64,000 bases of DNA, from the NCBI GenBank assembly GCA_934086935.1, contig CAKOIQ010000003.1, positions 5,528-69,527 on the forward strand, written 5' to 3'. A program made the translations under genes and the position numbers. This document shows positions 24,445-57,961 of this stretch, piece after piece (the stretch's first letter is position 1; every line of letters starts with the position of its first letter). Source of the DNA: an uncultured Bacilli bacterium (GTDB lineage: Bacteria; Bacillota_I; Bacilli_A; RF39; UBA660). The notes beneath the pieces are model-generated. The model made no database searches. It was not told the origin of the DNA and saw only the letters and a program-made list of their open reading frames with translations.

Positions 24445-24801
24445 TGGTGGAGCCGAGCAGAATTGAACTGCTGTCCAAAATATTTTTATAGTACAATCTA
24501 CAAGTTTAGATAATTTGTTATTTCACTAGTAGGAAGAAAATTATCTAAATTGCTACTAGCTGAGCTTAAAAATTTTCATTAAATAAATCAAGCAATTTAT
24601 TTAATATAATCTACTATTATGAACCAATTTAAAACTCTGTAGATTTAGTCTTAAACTAGTGCTCCGTGCCAACTATTAGGCAAATGCTAGAGCTGTATTA
24701 TAATTTGTATTGTCAGTTATTTTAACTGTTTTGCTATTTAGGATAGCAACCACTTGCATGTAAAATAAAATATATATTTTGTCGAAACCAAAAACGGCCC
24801 C
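24445..24801 (-). ncRNA. ssrA: transfer-messenger RNA (tmRNA, SsrA)
   Basis: The minus strand starts GGGGCCGTTTTTGGTTTCGAC... and ends ...GGACAGCAGTTCAATTCTGCTCGGCTCCACCA (tRNA-Ala-like acceptor/T-arm with CCA). The internal tag ORF is ...GAC AAT ACA AAT TAT AAT ACA GCT CTA GCA TTT GCC TAA TAG. Confidence 0.9.
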
Positions 24802-29309: not shown

Positions 29310-30839
29310 TTATTTAGTTTCTATTCTGGCAAATAATACTTCTGGAGAGTTTACTTTTACTCCTGGTAATAATTTACCATATGTTAAATCATCGAATGTG
29401 GTAAATTCAGTATTAATTTGTTTTAAAGCTTTTTCAGCAGATGTTGGAATATATGCCTTTAATAATATAGAAGAAATTCTTAATCCTTCTAATAGATTGT
29501 ATAACACTGTTCCTAATCTTTCTTTTTTTGTTTCATCTTTTGCTAGGGTCCATGGTGTTGTATCATCAATGTATTTATTACATTTTGATAGTAAATCCAT
29601 TATTTCAATAATTGCTTCATTTACTTTTAATTCATTCATTTTTCTAGTTACAATTTTTGGTAATTTATTAATTAAATTTATTAAATCTTCATCGATTTTT
29701 TCTGGTTTACTGTTTGGTTGAACTACACCATCAAAATATTTATTTAACATTGAAATTGTTCTATTTAATAGATTACCATAGTTATTTGCTAAATCAGAGT
29801 TGGTTCTTGCAACTAATAATTCTTCAGAAAAGTTACCATCATTTCCAAAAGGAACTTCTCTTAAAGCATAGTATCTTACTGCATCAACTCCATAATCTTC
29901 GATATATTCTCTTGGATCTTTATAGTTTCCTAGTGATTTAGAAATCTTACCTCCATTAATTATTAACCAACCATGGCCAAATACTTTTTTAGGCAGTTCT
30001 AATCCTAGTGCCATTAAAATGCATGGCCAAATAATAGTATGAAATCTGATTATTTCTTTTCCTACTAAGTGTAAATCAGCTGGCCAATATTTTTTGAACT
30101 TGGTATCATCATCACTCATGTATCCTAAAGACGTAATATAGTTAGTTAAAGCATCAATCCAAACATAAATTACATGATTAGGGTCAAAATCTACTGGTAT
30201 ACCCCATTTGAATGAAGTTCTTGAAACACATAAATCTTCTAAACCAGGTTTAATAAAGTTATTAATCATTTCATTTTTTCTAGATGTTGGTTGAATAAAA
30301 TCTGGGTGTTGTTCTAGGAAGTTTTCTAAATTTTGTTGGTATTTTGATAATTTAAAGAAATATGCTTCTTCAGATACCTCTTTTACTTCTCTACCACAGT
30401 CAGGACACATTCCATCTACAAGTTGTGTTTCAGTCCAGAAAGATTCACAAGGAGTACAATATAAGCCTTTGTATTCACTTTTATAGATATCTCCTTGATC
30501 ATATAATTTTTTAAATATTTTTTGAACAGCTGTTTCGTGATTTTTGTCCGTTGTTCTGATGAAATAATCATAACTAATTCCTAAAGATTTCCATAATTCT
30601 TTTGCATTGTCAACTATTTCATCTACATATTGTTTAGGTGTCTTACCCACTTCTTTTGCTTTTAACTCGATTTTTTGACCATGTTCGTCTGTTCCTGTTT
30701 GAAAAAAGACATCGTATCCTTCTAATCTTTTGAATCTTGCTATGGCATCGGCAATTATTGTTGTATAACAATGACCAATATGAAAATTAGCACTTGGATA
30801 ATAAATTGGAGTTGTTAAATAGTATTTTTTCTTTTCCAT
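29310..30839 (-). CDS. metG: methionine--tRNA ligase (short form without C-terminal tRNA-binding domain)
   Basis: TTPIYYPSANFHIGH (HIGH), CPDCGR zinc knuckle and KISKSLGN (KMSKS). Start trimmed to MEKKKYYL (ATG 30839), preceded by AAAGGA. Confidence 0.95.
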   Translation of the reverse strand: MEKKKYYLTTPIYYPSANFHIGHCYTTIIADAIARFKRLEGYDVFFQTGTDEHGQKIELKAKEVGKTPKQYVDEIVDNAKELWKSLGISYDYFIRTTDKNHETAVQKIFKKLYDQGDIYKSEYKGLYCTPCESFWTETQLVDGMCPDCGREVKEVSEEAYFFKLSKYQQNLENFLEQHPDFIQPTSRKNEMINNFIKPGLEDLCVSRTSFKWGIPVDFDPNHVIYVWIDALTNYITSLGYMSDDDTKFKKYWPADLHLVGKEIIRFHTIIWPCILMALGLELPKKVFGHGWLIINGGKISKSLGNYKDPREYIEDYGVDAVRYYALREVPFGNDGNFSEELLVARTNSDLANNYGNLLNRTISMLNKYFDGVVQPNSKPEKIDEDLINLINKLPKIVTRKMNELKVNEAIIEIMDLLSKCNKYIDDTTPWTLAKDETKKERLGTVLYNLLEGLRISSILLKAYIPTSAEKALKQINTEFTTFDDLTYGKLLPGVKVNSPEVLFARIETK

Positions 30840-30869
30840 TTCGTATTCCTTTCTAATAAAAAAATTCAT

Positions 30870-31070
30870 AAACTAAAGGACGACTTATGGCCGTGGTACC
30901 ACCTTAATTCATGAATTTCATGCACTTATATCTTAACGCGATTATTACGTTTGAACTCCGGAACCATGTTCATTATCAATAAATAATTCTCTCTCACCAA
31001 GTAAGAACTCTCTTTGTATTTACTAAATAATTACTCTTTCCTTCTTCGTTCAATATAGTTCATTCTAACA
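30870..31070 (-). promoter_or_regulatory. T-box riboswitch leader (Met) of metG
   Basis: Minus strand contains AGAGAG...GGTGAGAGAG stem-I elements and a candidate AUG specifier (GATAATGAAC, about 30971-30973). The T-box sequence AATTAAGGTGGTACCACGG (30888-30907 region) is present. A terminator helix ending in TTTTTTT lies just before the metG RBS. Confidence 0.8.
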
Positions 31071-40690: not shown

Positions 40691-40708
40691 AATTACTCCT
40701 TAAAAAAA

Positions 40709-40782
40709 GCGCACATACATAGAGGCAAATATGGCTGCTTTCTTCCGAATCTGACCAGGTTATTGCATTTGTATTGCGCATG
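40709..40782 (-). ncRNA. ffs: signal recognition particle RNA, short (4.5S-like) form
   Basis: Minus strand CATGCGCAATACAAATGCAATAACCTGGTCAGATTCGGAAGAAAGCAGCCATATTTGCCTCTATGTATGTGCGC + TTTTTTT. It contains the conserved domain IV core (GGUCAG..CGGAAG.AAGCAGCC with a GGAA tetraloop) closed by a long imperfect helix. End coordinates are approximate. Confidence 0.8.
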
Positions 40783-40866
40783 TATAATATAGCATATTTT
40801 AATTACATATTTCAATAATTTATTGTTTACAAATTTTAATAATTTGTATTTTTTATTTTTTGTTAA

Positions 40867-40882
40867 TGTTTCACGTGAAACA
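40867..40882. other. parS site 1 (perfect TGTTTCACGTGAAACA)
   Basis: 16/16 match to the Firmicute parS consensus TGTTNCACGTGAAACA. The palindrome extends to ATGTTTCACGTGAAACAT. Confidence 0.8.
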
Positions 40883-40991
40883 TATGTGGATATCTTTATT
40901 ATTAAATTAAGTAGTAATTAAGTAGTTATATATAAAATAAATATTTTTTAAATTAATCAATAAAGTTTTTTTATTAATGCATGTTGTATAA

Positions 40992-41007
40992 TGTTTCACG
41001 TGAAACA
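40992..41007. other. parS site 2 (perfect)
   Basis: TGTTTCACGTGAAACA, 125 bp from site 1. Confidence 0.8.
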
Positions 41008-41115
41008 TTGTGGACAATTTAGATATTCTGTTTAATGTACTTTTTATACTAAGATAAATTAATTAATTTTTAGCAAATTAATTTCAATAATTTGCCATAG
41101 TATGTAGAAATTATA

Positions 41116-41131
41116 TGTTTTACGTGAAACA
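41116..41131. other. parS site 3 (15/16)
   Basis: TGTTTTACGTGAAACA, 124 bp from site 2. Confidence 0.7.
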
Positions 41132-41193
41132 ATTGTTGAAATAATTGCTAATTTTTAAAATCTGTAGATTTTTTTGACTCTTTTATAGTTGAA

Positions 41194-41211
41194 TTATTTC
41201 CCGGGAAATAA
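41194..41211. other. Noc-binding-site (NBS)-type palindrome
   Basis: TTATTTCCCGGGAAATAA is a perfect 18-bp palindrome. Its core ATTTCCCGGGAAAT equals the B. subtilis NBS consensus as I recall it. Confidence 0.6.
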
Positions 41212-41223
41212 TTTTTGTGTATA

Positions 41224-41239
41224 TGTATCACGTTAACAT
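41224..41239. other. decayed parS-type element
   Basis: TGTATCACGTTAACAT keeps the left half-site apart from one substitution. The right half has an apparent 1-nt deletion. It sits in the phase expected for a parS unit. Confidence 0.5.
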
Positions 41240-41352
41240 ACATTATTATTAATCAATATATACAATTTTTTATTATTATGATGAAATAAAGCAATTTTTA
41301 AATATTTATCTTTTTGCAAATTAATTTCAATAATTTGCATTTTTTTTACTTA

Positions 41353-41368
41353 TGTTTCACGTGAAACA
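41353..41368. other. parS site 5 (perfect)
   Basis: TGTTTCACGTGAAACA followed by T and TGTGGATAT. Confidence 0.8.
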
Positions 41369-41459
41369 TTGTGGATATCTCAATCCTTTATTATTTTTTA
41401 TTCAAATTTGTTTTTTCTGTTAACTAATTACAATAATTTGCCTATTTTTGGTGTTGAAA

Positions 41460-41475
41460 TGTTTCACGTGAAACA
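41460..41475. other. parS site 6 (perfect, within a 24-bp palindrome)
   Basis: GAAATGTTTCACGTGAAACATTTC (41456-41479), about 25 bp downstream of the gyrA stop. Confidence 0.8.
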
Positions 41476-41500
41476 TTTCAATAAATAAAAGAGATAGCTA

Positions 41501-44074
41501 TTATGCTACCTCTTCATTTTCTTCTGGCTCATTTAGTACTAAACTAATTGTTGATACTATTTGATTATCTTTTAGATTAATTAATCTCGTTCCTTGAGTT
41601 ACTCGACCTAACTGTGAAATTTGATCTAAAGGTATTCTAATAATAATTCCATTATTAGTTATAATCATCAAGTCATTATTTTCTTCAAATCGTTTAATTG
41701 CAGCAATATTTCCATTCTTTTCAGTAATATTTAATGCTTTTACGCCTTTGCTGCCACGTTTTGTCTTGCGGTACTCACTGATATGTGTTTTTTTACCATA
41801 GCCTTTTTCAGTAACAATAATAATATTGTCATCTGCTTTTGCAGTTTCTAATCCTACGCATTTTCCGTTTTCTAAACTAATGCCTCTAACTCCGCTTGCT
41901 GTACGTCCCATTATTCTGACTTCTTCTTCATTAAATACAGCTATTCTTCCAGTGGATGAAGCCATTATAACATCGCATTCACCATCAGTCTTTTTAACTC
42001 CTATTAATTCATCATTTTCTTTTAAACTAATGCAAAGTTTTCCGCTCTTTCTAATATTATCAAATTCCTCAATTTTGGTACGTTTTACTAGACCACTCTT
42101 TGTAGCAAATAACAAATATTTGCTATCATCTGAAGGAGAATAACTTAACATTGATGTAATATGTTCATCCTTTTCAATTTGAAGCAAGTTAATTATAGGT
42201 ATTCCTTTTGATGTTCTTCCAAATTCAGGGATTTCATATCCTTTTACTCTATAAACTTTTCCTTTATTTGTAAAGAATGTTAAATAATCATGTGTATTTA
42301 AATTAAGCAAGTATTCAACAAAATCTTCTTCATTAGTTGACATTCCCTTTACACCTACACCACCTCTATTTTGAAGCTTGTAGTTATCAACATTATTTCT
42401 CTTAATGTATCCTTTATTTGTTAATGAAACTATTATGTTTTCTTGTGGAATAAGAGATTCATCTTCTATAAAATCTATGGCTGTCATATCTATTGTTGTT
42501 CTACGATCATCAGAATATTTATTCTTAATTTCTGTTAATTCATCTTTAATTATTTGTAATACTCTTGCCTCACTAGCTAAAATATCTTTTAAATCAGCTA
42601 TTATTTTTAATAATGCTGCCAATTCTTCATCAATTTTACTTCTTTCTAAGCCGGTTAATCGTCTTAATTTTAATTCAAGGATGCTTTCTGCTTGAATTAA
42701 TGATAAATTAAATCTTTCTATTAATGTATTTTTAGCAATTTCATCAGTTTCAGCGTTTTTGATTATTCTAATTACTTCATCAATATTATCTAAAGCAATT
42801 TTATATCCCTCTAAAATATGTACTCTATTTTCTGATTTATTTAAATCAAATCTAGTTCTTCTTATTATTACTTCTTTTTGGTAATCAATATATTTTGATA
42901 TAATATCTTTTAAAGGTAATGTTTTTGGTGTTAATCCATCTAACATTAAGAACATAATACTAAAATTTGTTTGAAATTGTGTATGTTTGTACAATTGATT
43001 TAAAATTACTTGAGGATTTGCATCCTTTTTTAAAGTTATTGTAATTGTTAATCCATTTTTTAGGTCTGTATGATAATCTGAGATACCATCTATTGTCTTA
43101 TTATGAACTAATTCTGCTACTTTTTCTTGTAATTCTTTAGTGTTTACGCCATAAGGAACTTCTGTTATTACTATACAATTGTGACCTTTTACTTCTTCAA
43201 TTCTAGCTTTACTTCTGATTGTAATTGTTCCTTTTCCAGTTTCATAAGCTTGTTTAATACCGGAATTTCCTAAAATTATGCCTCCTGTAGGAAAATCTGG
43301 ACCTTTAATAAAGTGCATTAATCCCATAGTATCAATATCGGGATTATCTATGTAAGCTATACATCCATCTATTACTTCTCCTAGATTATGTGGAGGAATA
43401 TTTGTTGCCATACCTACGGCGATACCCATGGTACCATTAACTAATATATTAGGAAATCTTGATGGTAAAACTCGTGGTTCTTTAGTGGAATCATCAAAGT
43501 TTGGATCAAAATCTACAGTATTTTTATTAATATCTCTTAACATTTCAAGGGATATTTTTGATAATCTACCTTCTGTATAACGATATGCAGCTGCTGAGTC
43601 ACCTTCGATTGTACCAAAGTTTCCGTGTCCATCAACTAGCATATATCTTTCAGCAAATTTTTGAGCTAATCTTACCATTGCATCATAAATTGATGAGTCT
43701 CCATGTGGATGATAATGTCCCATAACGTATCCGACTGTTGTTGCAGATTTTCTATGTGGTTTATCTGGAGTATATCCACATTCATACATAGACCATAAAA
43801 TACGGCGATGTACTGGCTTTAAACCATCTCTTAGGTCTGGTAATGCACGGGAAGCAATTACGCTTACAGAATAGTCTAAAAATGATGATTTTACTTCTTC
43901 TACAATATTATTTTCTGTTATTTTATCTTTTCCAGTTAATTCAGTATCAATTAAAGAATATTCTTCATCAAGTTCTTCTTCAGTATTATCAATATTGTCA
44001 TCAGCAATTTCAGGATTTTTATTGCTATCTAACTCTTGATTGTTAATAATATTATTTTTTTCTTCTTCTGTCAT
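41501..44074 (-). CDS. gyrA: DNA gyrase subunit A
   Basis: 857 aa. [19 protein letters not shown], active-site region AAYRYTE and C-terminal beta-pinwheel repeats. An acidic extension of about 45 aa precedes the conserved N-terminus. Confidence 0.97.
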
Positions 44075-47203: not shown

Positions 47204-47653
47204 TTATTTATTGTTTTTTCTGTTTTTAAAAGCTGTTTCTAATGATAATGATTTTAAATATTGATTTTGAATTATTCTATATGATGAATCAATTTCAATA
47301 CACTCATTATTTAAGAATTCAATTATACTTTTTTCTGATTTAGAATGAACCTTTTTTATGTTATTAACATTAATCCAAGCACATTCTTTTAATCTTGGTG
47401 AACAAGTTGGGAAAAAAATAATATTTCTATCTTCTTCAACTATTATTGGTGCTTTATAATTAAACCCTGTTAATGAATAAGTACCCTGTATTCTACCAGC
47501 AATACTACTTCCATAGTATTTACAATTTGAATCCATTATTTTTGATATTTTTTCATCAACAATGTAACACTCATGATCTTCATAAACTACGGTTTTCTTT
47601 TTTCCAATTGGAATTAAGGCAAGCGTATTTTTATTAATCTCATAATCTTTCAT
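47204..47653 (-). CDS. comK: ComK-family competence transcription factor
   Basis: YEINKNTLALIP...IMDSNCKYYGSSIAGRIQGTYSLTGFNYKAPIIVEE..NIIFFPTCSPRLKECAWIN...YRIIQNQY aligns along its length with B. subtilis ComK (SCRFFGSSYAGR...K.PI.V....IFLFPT.S....C.WI). Start trimmed to MKDYEIN (ATG 47653), preceded by GGGGGTGA. Confidence 0.85.
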   Translation of the reverse strand: MKDYEINKNTLALIPIGKKKTVVYEDHECYIVDEKISKIMDSNCKYYGSSIAGRIQGTYSLTGFNYKAPIIVEEDRNIIFFPTCSPRLKECAWINVNNIKKVHSKSEKSIIEFLNNECIEIDSSYRIIQNQYLKSLSLETAFKNRKNNK

Positions 47654-47692
47654 AACTTCACCCCCTGTTGGGATACAATTAAAACACTTTTT

Positions 47693-47722
47693 TTTGTCGA
47701 AATTTGTCGAATTTTGTCGAAA
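47693..47722. promoter_or_regulatory. three tandem Spo0A-box (TGTCGAA) direct repeats at 10-bp phasing
   Basis: TTTGTCGAA occurs at 47693-47701, 47703-47711 and 47713-47721. Each contains a perfect 0A box TGTCGAA (consensus TGNCGAA). They lie 40-69 nt upstream of the comK-like start codon and just past the dnaN terminator. Confidence 0.6.
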
Positions 47723-47734
47723 AACTAACATTTT

Positions 47735-50363: not shown

Positions 50364-50648
50364 TTCCTCACCCACCTTAGTTTGCTTTCTTAAGTTAATT
50401 TTAAAACAATCCTGTGGAAAAATAAAGAATAAAAATAAAAAAAATGGTTTTCCAAAGTTTTTCCACACAATTATCAACAAAATTTATCTTATTTTACCGC
50501 ATCAAAAATACTTTTTCAACAATTTCCACAAAATAAAATTAACATAAATTTTAATAATCCACATTTTCCATTTTTGTAAATAAAATATTTAGATATTTGA
50601 TATTTTTTAAAATTGTTATTTTGTTAATTAGTGAATATTATATTTATG
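50364..50648. other. oriC: DnaA-box cluster and AT-rich region upstream of dnaA
   Basis: DnaA-box variants: TGTGGAAAA 50413-50421, TTTTCCACA 50459-50467, TTATCAACA 50471-50479, ATTTCCACA 50522-50530 and TAATCCACA 50565-50573 (consensus TTATCCACA). An almost pure A/T stretch follows at about 50575-50645. The coding strand switches here. Confidence 0.75.
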
Positions 50649-50649
50649 G

Positions 50650-50678
50650 TTGACTTAAAAAAGTTTATATAATATAAT
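50650..50678 (+). promoter_or_regulatory. sigma-A promoter of rpmH-rnpA
   Basis: TTGACT, 17 nt, TATAAT, about 30 nt upstream of the rpmH ATG. Confidence 0.55.
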
Positions 50679-50708
50679 AAGAGCGCCGATTGAAATGGAG
50701 GTGTGAAA

Positions 50709-50831
50709 ATGAAAAGAACATTTCAACCAAATAATCGTAAAGCAAAGAAAAAACAAGGATTTTTTGCTAGAATGAAAACTAAAATTTTAAATAATCGTAG
50801 AAGAAAAGGACGCAAAAGATTAAGTAAGTAG
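50709..50831 (+). CDS. rpmH: 50S ribosomal protein L34
   Basis: Own translation MKRTFQPNNRKAKKKQGFFARMKTKILNNRRRKGRKRLSK*, RBS GGAGG. Below the ORF-track length cut-off. Confidence 0.95.
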   Translation: MKRTFQPNNRKAKKKQGFFARMKTKILNNRRRKGRKRLSK

Positions 50832-50868
50832 GCCACGTTATGTGGTTTTTATTCTAATTGGAGGAAAT

Positions 50869-51195
50869 ATGAATAATGACATTAGAGTAAAAGATAAAAG
50901 AGAATTTGAAGAAATTTTATTTAATGGCAAGAAAATAAAAAATAATTACTATATTATATATTATAAGGAAAGAAAAACTGATTCTTCAAGATATGGAATT
51001 ACTTTTGCTAAAAAATTTGGTAAAGCTTATAAACGAAATTTGTTTAAAAGAAGATTAAGGGAAATTATTAGAATTAATCAAAATATGTTTTCAAAAGACT
51101 TTGATTATATTATAATAATAAGGAAATATTGTGATGTTTTAGATTATCAAGAAATGAATGATTTCTTTGTTAACTTGATGAAAGAGGCGAAATAA
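50869..51195 (+). CDS. rnpA: ribonuclease P protein component
   Basis: Basic protein with R.G.+..KK.G.A..RN..KR..RE (RNR-like motif). Follows rpmH. The ATG at 50869 after GGAGG is preferred over the GTG at 50842. Confidence 0.9.
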   Translation: MNNDIRVKDKREFEEILFNGKKIKNNYYIIYYKERKTDSSRYGITFAKKFGKAYKRNLFKRRLREIIRINQNMFSKDFDYIIIIRKYCDVLDYQEMNDFFVNLMKEAK

Positions 51196-52124
51196 TGAAA
51201 ATAAAAAAAATAATATTAATCTTTCTTACTTGTTTTTGTTTAACTGGATGTACAAAGTATATAAGTGACGATAATAATAAAAGAGTAATTAATGAAGAAA
51301 CTGGTCAAAGTTTACCTTCAAATATATTATGTAAACCAACAACCAGTGAATTAGATGAAATTTATAATAAATATAAAGATAAATTGGAAGTAGATTTGAA
51401 TAAGCTTCCAGAATGTGAAAATTTAAAATATTATGATTCTAATAATTACAATGGTTTATGGGTACAATTAATTGTTATGCCACTTGCTTGGTTAATTATT
51501 AAAATTGGTAATTTTTTAGGTAACTATGGTTTATCTGTTATGGCTGTAGGGTTACTTATAAGAATTATATTAATTCCATTTACTAGAAAAACAATTAAAC
51601 AATCAGAAAATATGAAAAAAGCTCAACCAGAAATGGAAAGACTTGAAAAGAAATATGCCAATAAAAATGATCAAGAATCATTAATGATGAAGAGTCAAGA
51701 AATGATGATGATTTATAAAAAATATAATATTAGTCCTTTTGGTAGTTGCTTAATCTCATTTATTCAACTTCCTTTATTCTTTGGATTCTTAGAAGCCATA
51801 AATAGAATACCAGCAATATTTGAAGGTGATTTAGGTGCTTATCAATTAGGTACTACGCCTTTAATTGGTATTAAATCGGGTAATTATTTCTATATTGTAT
51901 TAATCTTATTAATTATTTTAACAACATATTTATCATTTAAATTTAGTATGAGTTCTATGGGTAATGCAGCTCAACAAAAACAAATGAAAATGATGACTGG
52001 ATTTATGTTAGTATTTATTTCAATTGCATCATTTAGCTTACCAACTGCCATTGCTTTATATTGGGTAGTAACTAATGGATTCAGTGTTGTTCAAAATTTA
52101 ATTATGAAAAGAGGTAAAATGTAG
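51195..52124 (+). CDS. yidC: membrane protein insertase YidC/SpoIIIJ (lipoprotein type)
   Basis: Lipobox LTGC, five TM helices and conserved ...P+..+Q..S...M...QPEM..++.KY... Confidence 0.92.
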   Translation: MKIKKIILIFLTCFCLTGCTKYISDDNNKRVINEETGQSLPSNILCKPTTSELDEIYNKYKDKLEVDLNKLPECENLKYYDSNNYNGLWVQLIVMPLAWLIIKIGNFLGNYGLSVMAVGLLIRIILIPFTRKTIKQSENMKKAQPEMERLEKKYANKNDQESLMMKSQEMMMIYKKYNISPFGSCLISFIQLPLFFGFLEAINRIPAIFEGDLGAYQLGTTPLIGIKSGNYFYIVLILLIILTTYLSFKFSMSSMGNAAQQKQMKMMTGFMLVFISIASFSLPTAIALYWVVTNGFSVVQNLIMKRGKM

Positions 52125-52125
52125 T

Positions 52126-52737
52126 ATGGAAGTATATGTTTATGAAGGAAAAAAAGAAGAAGAGGTTTTAACAAAAGCTTTAACTGATTTAAATGTCACT
52201 GAAAATGATATTTTGTTAAAGAAAGAAAAAAATAAAGGTGGATTATTTAAATCAGAAACATATAAATTAACTATTGTTAAAATAACTGATATACAAGAAG
52301 AAATAAAAACATTTTTAAAAGATTTATTAAATAAAATGGATATTGACGTAACATTTGAATCTAATATAAGAGAAAAACAAATTACAATTAAAATGTTTTC
52401 TGATAATAATGCAATTTTAATTGGTAAAAATGGTCAAACTTTAAGTGCTTTATCAACTATAGTTAAACAATATATTTATAATCAAATTGGACAATATCCA
52501 TATATAAATTTGGATGTTGAAAACTATAAAGATAAACAAGTTATGCATTTAGAAAGACTAGCTAAGAATATCGCTAGAGAAGTTAGAAGTACTAAACAAC
52601 CAGTAACTATGGAAAATATGAATTCTTATGAAAGAAGAATTGTTCATAATGTATTAACTAATTTTAAAGGCGTTATTACTGAAAGTGAAGGCGTTGAACC
52701 TAATAGACATGTTGTTGTAAAGCCAATGGAGGATTAA
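52126..52737 (+). CDS. jag: Jag/KhpB RNA-binding protein (Jag_N, KH, R3H)
   Basis: KH GxxG (IGKNGQT) and R3H (SYERRIVHNVL) motifs, with yidC-jag synteny. Confidence 0.9.
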   Translation: MEVYVYEGKKEEEVLTKALTDLNVTENDILLKKEKNKGGLFKSETYKLTIVKITDIQEEIKTFLKDLLNKMDIDVTFESNIREKQITIKMFSDNNAILIGKNGQTLSALSTIVKQYIYNQIGQYPYINLDVENYKDKQVMHLERLAKNIAREVRSTKQPVTMENMNSYERRIVHNVLTNFKGVITESEGVEPNRHVVVKPMED

Positions 52738-52800
52738 TTCCTCTTTTTATTTTCATTAAAATCAATGTGTGTTATAATACGTGCGAAAGAAGGAAATATT

Positions 52801-56779: not shown

Positions 56780-57961
56780 ATGGAGTCACAAGTTCAAAAT
56801 GTTAATATTGATTTAATTATACCAAATAGATTTCAACCAAGATTAGCCTTTGATGAAAAAGCATTGAATGATTTAGCTGAATCTATTAAACAACATGGAA
56901 TTATTCAACCTTTAGTTGTTAGACAATTAGCCGGTAGGTATGAAATTATAGCAGGAGAAAGAAGATATAAGGCAGCAATTATAGCTGGTTTACAGAGTGT
57001 ACCAGTAATTGTTACAAGTTTGTCTGATGCTAAAAGTGAAGAAGTGGCTTTAGTTGAAAATATACAAAGAAAAAATTTAAGTTCTATTGAAGAAGCAAGA
57101 TCTTATAAAAGAATGTTAGACAAAGATAATTTAACTCAAGAGCAATTAGCAAAAAAATTAGGTTTATCTCAGTCAACAATTGCTAATAGATTAAGATTAT
57201 TAAACTTAAGTGATAACGTTCAAAATGCATTATTAAAAGAAAAAATAAGTGAACGACATGCAAGAAGCTTACTTCAAATTAATGATAAGTTACAACAGGA
57301 CGAGATTTTAAATAAAATAATTACTGAAAGATTAACCGTTAGACAATTAGATGAGTTAATTAAAAATAGATTAGATTCAAATGTCACTGAACCGGAAATG
57401 CCAGTTAAACAAGATATTGTACCAAATGAAGTAGCAAAGTCAGAACCTGAATTGTTACCGATTGAAAGTTTAGATACAACTTTAAATAGTCAATCTGAAT
57501 CTTTAGAAAACGTGTCAGATTTAGATGTAAATTCAACTGCATCAAGCGAAGATTTAAATGGAGAAGATAAATCTGCTACTGATGAAGAACCAATGAATAA
57601 TATTTTGAGTTTTTTACAAAGCTTTAATAATTCAACTCCATCATTAGATGATGAGCCGGCAAACCTTCAAACATTTGATGATGATATCTTCAATGAAGGA
57701 CATAATGTTGATGACTCAGTTGAAGAAGCAAAAGATTCTTCAGAAGTGTTGGATTTAGATAATATTAAAAATTCAAGTGTATCAGATGAAAATCAAGTAA
57801 AACCGGATAATAGTCCAATAATTATATCGGGAGATATAAATTCTTTAAAGAAAGCATATCATGATTTACAAGATGAAGCAGAAAAAGCAGGTTTTAAAAT
57901 CAGTATGGAAGATTTTGATTTTGAAGATTTATATCAAATGATTATTAAGATTGATAAGTAG
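56780..57961 (+). CDS. ParB/Noc-family CTP-dependent DNA-binding protein (ParB vs Noc unresolved)
   Basis: 393 aa. IPNRFQPR, GIIQPLVVR, GERRYKAA (ParB box / CTP pocket) and HTH LTQEQLAKKLGLSQSTIANRLRLL. An acidic low-complexity linker of about 145 aa follows, then a C-terminal dimerisation-like segment. No parA/soj gene is adjacent. Confidence 0.85.
   Translation: MESQVQNVNIDLIIPNRFQPRLAFDEKALNDLAESIKQHGIIQPLVVRQLAGRYEIIAGERRYKAAIIAGLQSVPVIVTSLSDAKSEEVALVENIQRKNLSSIEEARSYKRMLDKDNLTQEQLAKKLGLSQSTIANRLRLLNLSDNVQNALLKEKISERHARSLLQINDKLQQDEILNKIITERLTVRQLDELIKNRLDSNVTEPEMPVKQDIVPNEVAKSEPELLPIESLDTTLNSQSESLENVSDLDVNSTASSEDLNGEDKSATDEEPMNNILSFLQSFNNSTPSLDDEPANLQTFDDDIFNEGHNVDDSVEEAKDSSEVLDLDNIKNSSVSDENQVKPDNSPIIISGDINSLKKAYHDLQDEAEKAGFKISMEDFDFEDLYQMIIKIDK

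Follow-up and report, generated by a model that had tools for sequence, protein, structure and literature searches.

The locus described here raises the question why a palindrome with the consensus of a Noc-binding site (NBS) should lie among the parS sites of a cluster close to the replication origin, and which protein might read it there. The window, by which we mean the whole analysed stretch of 64 kb from an uncultured Bacilli bacterium, had been the subject of a preliminary description made from its letters, in which an 18-bp perfect palindrome, TTATTTCCCGGGAAATAA, was noted and its core was equated with the NBS consensus of B. subtilis. The palindrome is present exactly as described (Table 1), and all 16 bases at 41195-41210, TATTTCCCGGGAAATA, are identical to the consensus NBS TATTTCCC-GGGAAATA reported by Jalal et al. 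(2020, PMC7383237), so the consensus given there was right. The same study gives TGTTTCAC-GTGAAACA as the consensus parS; the two motifs thereby differ at two positions in each half-site, as had also been stated. When the window was searched with the 18-mer, only this single match was returned even with three mismatches allowed, and extension to both ends of the 76-kb source contig gave no more, which leaves the NBS count of the contig at one. At the base composition of the window (25.4% G+C) an exact 16-mer NBS is expected by chance 1.3e-5 times in 64 kb. This exact-match expectation is the relevant number, as a shuffle test with three mismatches allowed is weak (a match in 11 of 100 shuffles). 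The 18-mer also fits the extended NBS logo of the clade, aaaT-TATTTCCCGGGAAATA-Attt, and by its letters we regard it as a bona fide NBS-type sequence.

Table 1. Coordinates of the NBS, the surrounding sites and the genes referred to in the text (positions in the window; a dot marks features without assigned strand)
Feature	Position	Strand	Remark
NBS	41194-41211	.	perfect 18-bp palindrome; core at 41195-41210
Composite site cluster	40816-41487	.	spacer of ~670 bp between gyrA terminator and SRP-RNA promoter
parS	40867-40882	.	exact consensus, TGTTTCACGTGAAACA
parS	40992-41007	.	exact consensus
parS	41116-41131	.	one mismatch, TGTTTTACGTGAAACA; exact in three other strains
Decayed parS	41224-41239	.	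TGTATCACGTTAACAT; 12 nt after the NBS palindrome
parS	41353-41368	.	exact consensus
parS	41460-41475	.	exact consensus; 25 nt past the gyrA stop codon
Inverted repeat, copy 1	41073-41095	.	GCAAATTA-N7-TAATTTGC, exact
Inverted repeat, copy 2	41316-41338	.	GCAAATTA-N7-TAATTTGC, exact
Inverted repeat, degenerate copies	40828-40850, 41421-41443		
DnaA-box-like 9-mers	40885-40893, 41009-41017, 41370-41378		TGTGGATAT or TGTGGACAA
SRP RNA	40694-40790	-	
Promoter-like site for SRP RNA	40815-40786	-	
Terminator-like hairpin	41515-41488	-	ends gyrA
gyrA	41501-44074	-	
ComK-family gene	47204-47731	-	Pfam PF06338, 1.6e-36
dnaA	48993-50363	-	origin marker; distance to the NBS 7.8 kb
Noc-type ParB-family protein	56780-57961	+	393 aa; ParB_N + HTH_ParB; predicted NBS binder
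tmRNA	24445-24801	-	Rfam
Methionyl-tRNA synthetase gene	29310-30869		
T-box leader	30873-31055	-	Rfam; upstream of the methionyl-tRNA synthetase gene

On the minus strand of the window the site cluster stands in the order tadA, SRP RNA, site cluster, gyrA, gyrB, recF, a ComK-family gene, dnaN and dnaA, and the plus strand carries rpmH, rnpA, yidC, jag, mnmE, mnmG and rsmG, followed by the ParB-family gene at 56780-57961. The cluster is flanked by a terminator-like and a promoter-like site and is therefore probably an untranscribed spacer. At distances of 7.5-8.1 kb from dnaA it holds four parS of exact consensus and a fifth that deviates at one base, and is thus a set of origin-proximal consensus parS sites. 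The parS-type element that follows the NBS palindrome after 12 nt is decayed, as the preliminary description had it, and its statement that both recognition sequences occur side by side is borne out. The units of what it called one repeat array are 107-129 bp long; the array is not a clean tandem repeat, since Tandem Repeats Finder reported no unit of ~120 bp and the units have consequently diverged. Similarly, the slot occupied by the NBS had been said to be filled in the other units by the inverted repeat GCAAATTA-N7-TAATTTGC. Two exact and two degenerate copies are found, and the unit that holds the parS at 40992 is without any.

The inverted repeat itself is exactly kept in a sister lineage (L160) despite ~15% divergence of the surrounding array, as judged from the alignment, and none of 56 more distant relatives has it in the array. 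A 9-mer enrichment run to detect further motifs common to the arrays of different species recovered, besides parS, SRP-RNA sequence only, so that the inverted repeat does not belong to the clade at large. As in the SRP-RNA promoter, a TTGAAA hexamer is found in it, and it could represent a third kind of binding site, specific to the genus, or a piece of promoter that was duplicated. The idea that this AT-rich repeat represents an NBS minus its CCGGG core arose by eye and was discarded, as the resemblance is indistinguishable from chance in such AT-rich DNA. The cluster further contains three DnaA-box-like 9-mers (one mismatch from TGTGGATAA), all in the same orientation and located directly after, or at most 2 bases from, three of the parS sites. 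They are conserved in the species and the sister lineage and are found at 10 of 180 parS in more distant relatives; a coupling of DnaA boxes to parS was dropped from the model for this lack of conservation.

Some further observations concern the neighbourhood of the cluster. The ComK-family gene lies between recF and dnaN and interrupts an otherwise conserved dnaA-dnaN-recF-gyrB-gyrA block. GyrA has an acidic N-terminal extension of ~50 residues, and matches to GyrA profiles begin at residue 52. The tmRNA and the T-box leader detected with Rfam are ordinary features. The gene coordinates reveal a 1-bp length difference between the window and an ENA scaffold (L001), located between dnaA and mnmE (~50364-52765), and the window may stem from another assembly of this organism.

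To place the NBS in the history of the species we used six other contigs of the same species, obtained from other samples, that encode an identical TadA and span the site. Compared with the array of the window, theirs show 98.8-100% identity; the NBS and the decayed parS are unchanged in all six, and the parS at 41116 is exact in three. In the sister lineage L160 (GyrA 98% identical; array ~85% identical where aligned, according to our own reading of the alignment) the same NBS is followed after 11 nt by an intact parS, compared with the 12-nt gap to the decayed site in the window. That the homologous site in L160 is an exact parS indicates that the decay at 41224 is recent and lineage-specific, and points to an NBS-parS pair that is ancestral to the window species and the L160 group.

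The comparison was widened to 80 loci from related species, collected with DnaA as anchor and amounting to 1.34 Mb of origin-proximal DNA. These species are uncultured Bacilli, some of them labelled 'Tenericutes', with a DnaA 52-73% identical to that of the window. The related loci contain 113 exact NBS, and 113 of the 115 CCCGGG hexamers in this DNA lie inside one of them. With up to one mismatch allowed, 98 of 135 NBS have a parS no more than 500 bp away or another NBS no more than 300 bp away, and 37 are solitary; conservation of the NBS in the clade extends to ~24 bp. A comparison of orthologous arrays had been proposed as a check on the palindrome, and it showed the NBS beside parS in 32 of 57 parS-bearing loci, often in alternation, with at least two NBS in 20 loci. 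The alternation is strict in many arrays. Five NBS-parS pairs with a constant offset of 47 bp are present in L037, and in L062 five NBS alternate with six parS at a period of ~125 bp. Similar alternating arrays were seen in L069, L079, L082, L060, L022, L073 and L077, and tandem copies reach up to six NBS in an array. Within the arrays the sites are exact and the spacers 60-90% identical. Parts of the parS repertoire had first been scored as two-mismatch sites; these are a symmetric variant, TGTTCCACGTGGAACA. The offsets between NBS and parS cluster at ~47, 57-58 and 68-70 bp; a helical phasing was considered but is not claimed here, as most of the counts come from units duplicated inside arrays. 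One relative (L076:18983-19520) has an unusually dense array of 14 parS with a strict period of 40-41 bp and no NBS in the locus.

The positions of the solitary NBS are conserved, either within dnaX or between jag and mnmE. The nearest relatives of the window (L003-L021) have a solitary exact NBS within the coding sequence of dnaX, ~1.65 kb past the parS cluster, and a further one between jag and mnmE, ~2.4 kb upstream of dnaA. The window is without either of these, and its sole NBS is the one in the array. As its nearest GTDB relatives mostly keep the NBS 1.65 kb off in dnaX and not in the array, the interleaving is less regular in the sub-lineage of the window.

A scan of metagenomes for NBS located 5-35 bp from a parS gave at least 120 contigs, nearly all at the gyrA-tadA locus. 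Among the tight-pair contigs listed (at least 120) the median G+C is 26%, and the array has gyrA beside it in at least 78 and tadA in at least 91. A metagenome contig with 49% G+C (L184:1445-2380) carries a noc-like gene (QKQR) and soj-spo0J, with four parS and one NBS in the spacer that separates them. This arrangement indicates that the NBS-parS association is not confined to one locus or clade. The noc-like gene of L184 is apparently frameshifted at its 5' end. Several loci (L085, L088-L091) and many tight-pair contigs end inside or at the edge of a parS/NBS array; since repeats break short-read assemblies, such arrays are probably under-represented in MAGs.

The preliminary description had referred to a ParB/Noc-family protein of the window, and one is indeed encoded at 56780-57961; its Noc-type residues and its missing membrane helix had escaped notice, as had the lack of a gene for a parS-type ParB in the neighbourhood. 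It is the only ParB-family protein in the window, and its gene lies ~15 kb from the NBS, directly downstream of rsmG, which is the position of noc in Bacillus. The protein matches ParB_N (1.6e-33) and HTH_ParB (2.7e-33) of Pfam and retains the CTP-binding motifs GERR and ENIQR (ENxQR). Its best NCBIfam model is Noc (TIGR04285), with a score of 274.6 bits that is under the curated cut-off of 315 and a match that spans only profile positions 1-202 of 255, and the nearest solved structures are Geobacillus Noc (best) and Bacillus Noc. A neighbour-joining tree, a simple one built on identity distances and few references, places the Noc-like proteins with Noc of Bacillus and Geobacillus (49 of 50 bootstraps) and the Spo0J proteins of the clade with B. 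subtilis Spo0J. Both the location after rsmG and the grouping with Noc rather than Spo0J are those of a Noc orthologue. All related loci that are long enough to take in the gene code for a Noc-type DNA-binding domain.

The specificity residues of the window protein are Q173, R179, N184 and R201, where Noc has QKKR and ParB R..G. According to Jalal et al. (PMC7383237) Q173 reads adenine 1 and R201 cytosine 6 of the NBS, given a K or R at 179 or 184, and R173 and G201 are invariant in parS-binding ParB orthologues. The window protein has Q173 and R201 together with an arginine at 179, and hence the residues described for reading an NBS. Its Noc-type Q173, R179 and R201 make it a likely NBS binder, and we predict that it binds NBS, not parS. 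It also has N instead of K at 184 and L at 171, a position where K is conserved, and for this reason its exact specificity is predicted rather than known. The residue combinations QRNR, QKNR, QKSR and QKAR were not found in the searched portion of the supplement text of Jalal et al.

The Noc-like proteins of the clade come in two types. In type A (24 loci, from the more distant relatives) the protein has K171 and S or A at 184, and soj and spo0J follow immediately downstream; Spo0J there has R173/G201 and an N-terminal ParA-interaction peptide, RRALGRGLEELF, and the Noc-like protein has Q..R. In type B (17 loci and the window) V, I or L is found at 171 and N at 184, and soj and spo0J are not found next to the noc-like gene. 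The 76-kb source contig, both ends of which were reached, has neither a further ParB-family gene nor one for ParA, and the same holds for the 10 kb around dnaA in the 17 type B loci; the DNA inspected per genome was ~20 kb in the relatives and 76 kb in the species of the window. Perfect parS sites persist throughout type B, and therefore something binds them. The simplest inference is that a parS-binding ParB would be encoded elsewhere in type B genomes. A protein search with a Spo0J of the clade (L036) was uninformative on this point, as the matches listed were only those with at least 71% identity, all from the other sub-lineage.

An N-terminal amphipathic membrane-targeting helix and a helix alpha2 have been described as Noc-specific and present in all Noc homologues examined. 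Both are absent from the window protein, whose ORF starts 15 residues before the conserved PNRFQPR, with a stop 7 codons upstream of the ATG and an RBS preceding the ATG. The membrane-targeting helix is likewise missing from 48 homologues, which have in common a linker that is acidic and variable and, at the C terminus, a short conserved stretch that ends ...DFEDLYQIIIKIEK. The acidic linker of the window protein is ~150 aa long, and members of the family range from ~320 to 610 aa. With its long acidic linker and without the membrane-targeting helix, the window protein is not a canonical Noc. Since the helix is missing, classical nucleoid occlusion by membrane tethering is unlikely, and the protein probably does not tether DNA to the membrane as Bacillus Noc does. 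The linker (residues ~200-350; compared in the window and L003-L082) contains the motifs ...DLDSLL... and ...FKFF(S/T)PAE... in type A and ...NLF.NF... and ...PSLEDE... in the group of the window, and these semi-conserved motifs may be docking peptides for a partner. The C-terminal 52 residues of the Noc-like protein gave no sequence match among solved structures, and we infer a role of this segment in dimerisation.

The reading that we prefer, of a functional NBS served by the protein at 56780-57961, has to be weighed against others. One is that a single protein serves two sites, with the Noc-like protein as the only chromosomal ParB-family protein in the sub-lineage of the window and bound to NBS and parS alike. 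Such a protein would agree with the absence of a second ParB or ParA from the 76-kb contig and from the vicinity of dnaA in type B, with the unusual V/I/L at the otherwise conserved K171 and the N184 that type B proteins share, and with the existence of dual-specificity variants in deep mutational scans. We nevertheless consider it unlikely: Q173 and R201 are kept, the parS-specific variants of Jalal et al. (PMC7383237) have an invariable R173, and with regions of the size inspected a ParB elsewhere in the genome is entirely possible. Considerably less probable still is the proposal of the preliminary description that the site is a snapshot of site or specificity turnover, taken here to include a conversion between parS and NBS or a neutral relic without current function. 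The decayed neighbour and the mere two bases per half-site by which the motifs differ could be taken in its favour, yet the NBS lies beside and not at a parS position, is a perfect match that is invariant in the six contigs from other samples, is followed by an intact parS in L160, and recurs paired with parS in dozens of species (32 of 57 loci). With the pair being ancestral and the decay recent, the snapshot reading fails. The suggestion of a deliberate boundary between ParB and Noc is also unlikely, because the NBS is in the middle of the cluster in the window and interleaved with parS in relatives.

That the CCCGGG core is the target of a SmaI/XmaI-type restriction-modification system, which had been offered as an alternative, or a chance product of an AT-rich repeat can practically be dismissed. 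CCCGGG is a known type II recognition sequence and is found 2 times in the window against 0.27 expected; its occurrence in the related DNA is, however, not flank-independent, being almost entirely within the full 16-bp NBS, and a 6-bp target would leave 16-24 bp of the conserved sequence unexplained. No restriction-modification gene was noticed among the window ORFs (family-library scan of 13 proteins, 12 of them different). An operator for another dimeric regulator, outside the ParB/Noc family, is very improbable as well. The site is palindromic, intergenic and near the SRP-RNA promoter and the gyrA terminator, as an operator might be, but it is the exact NBS consensus, a cognate Noc-type domain is encoded in every related locus that reaches the gene, and sites inside the dnaX coding sequence or in tandem arrays of up to six copies are not operator-like. 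The comparative data thus rule out chance and a SmaI-type restriction site and largely refute turnover.

Taken together, we think it likely that the palindrome is a functional NBS, most probably the loading site for the Noc-type clamp encoded at 56780-57961, and that its place in the parS cluster is selected, so that two clamps would be brought beside oriC. The protein would bind at 41194-41211 and spread as Noc and ParB do, and the parS-binding ParB would be encoded elsewhere in the genome. From the established behaviour of the family, we would expect the protein to nucleate at the NBS, close as a CTP clamp and spread. Noc and ParB are known to spread over kilobases (8-10 kb in S. aureus), and from the NBS the clamp would run over the parS cluster and on in the direction of oriC. 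A ParB that had loaded at the adjacent parS would then occupy the same DNA as the Noc-type clamp, and two orthogonal paralogous clamps, ParB at parS and the Noc-type protein at the NBS, would be placed onto the same few hundred bp near oriC. Through its conserved C-terminal segment and its linker motifs the Noc-type protein may mark or organise the centromere and the origin region. What would follow downstream is speculative; one can imagine a part in positioning the origin, in controlling either replication initiation or division, or in sporulation. Noc of S. aureus controls replication initiation, and the clade carries the sporulation genes spoIIR, spoIID and yabG.

For this large clade of uncultured, low-G+C gut Bacilli and at least one Firmicute of higher G+C (L184) we more tentatively suggest, as a possibility that may well fail, a composite centromere in which ParB at parS and an anchor-less Noc paralogue at NBS co-assemble on an interleaved array by oriC. 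Such a centromere could be close to the ancestral state of Noc, after duplication of ParB and before the gain of the membrane anchor and the dispersal of the sites, or it could instead have arisen later as a function specific to the origin. In the sub-lineage of the window the centromere might even have passed to the Noc-like protein alone. The evidence throughout is drawn from sequences, the window itself has a single NBS, and the most regular interleaving is found in the other sub-lineage.

As kinds, the elements of this locus are already known: the site and the protein are relatives of Noc and NBS, and the cluster corresponds to a ParB-parS centromere. With the Noc/NBS system of B. subtilis and S. 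aureus it shares the identical 16-bp consensus, the domain order (an N-terminal CTP-binding ParB domain followed by the helix-turn-helix domain), Q173/R201, the gene directly after rsmG and, within the origin-region DNA analysed, the origin-proximal sites. It differs in that their membrane-targeting helix and helix alpha2 are missing here and an acidic variable linker is present. The layout of the sites is different too, since NBS are scattered in the model organisms, with 41 mapped Noc loci in S. aureus, and are here gathered in the parS cluster or next to it, in many cases in alternation with parS. Centromeres made of clustered parS are familiar from other bacteria. As in these, several consensus parS lie within 1 kb, a few kb from dnaA, and in more distant relatives there are soj and spo0J genes, with ParB-type residues and, at the N terminus, the peptide for interaction with ParA; unlike in these, the orthogonal recognition sequence of a paralogue is interleaved with parS, and there is no ParB or ParA gene near the noc-like gene in the sub-lineage of the window. 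Proteins outside the ParB family also bind the origin region to position or anchor it, and in B. subtilis RacA does so at ram sites. RicO of S. aureus is reported to be another origin-region binder (bioRxiv 10.64898/2026.03.06.710092). RacA and RicO are unrelated to ParB and use other sites, and an anchoring function of the window protein would be hypothetical. A full-text literature search that included the site sequence, and covered a minority of subscription journals, found nothing on co-clustering of NBS and parS or on an anchor-less Noc. What appears to be new is the conserved co-clustering and alternation of NBS with parS and an anchor-less, long-linker Noc paralogue.

The duplication of a DNA-binding protein with a subsequent change of specificity and function has its textbook example in Noc and ParB. 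In model organisms the two have separate sets of sites and separate jobs, Noc in nucleoid occlusion at the membrane and ParB in chromosome segregation. Here, a Noc-type site is kept within the centromere, and the protein is without the anchor needed for nucleoid occlusion. [quoted passage not shown]
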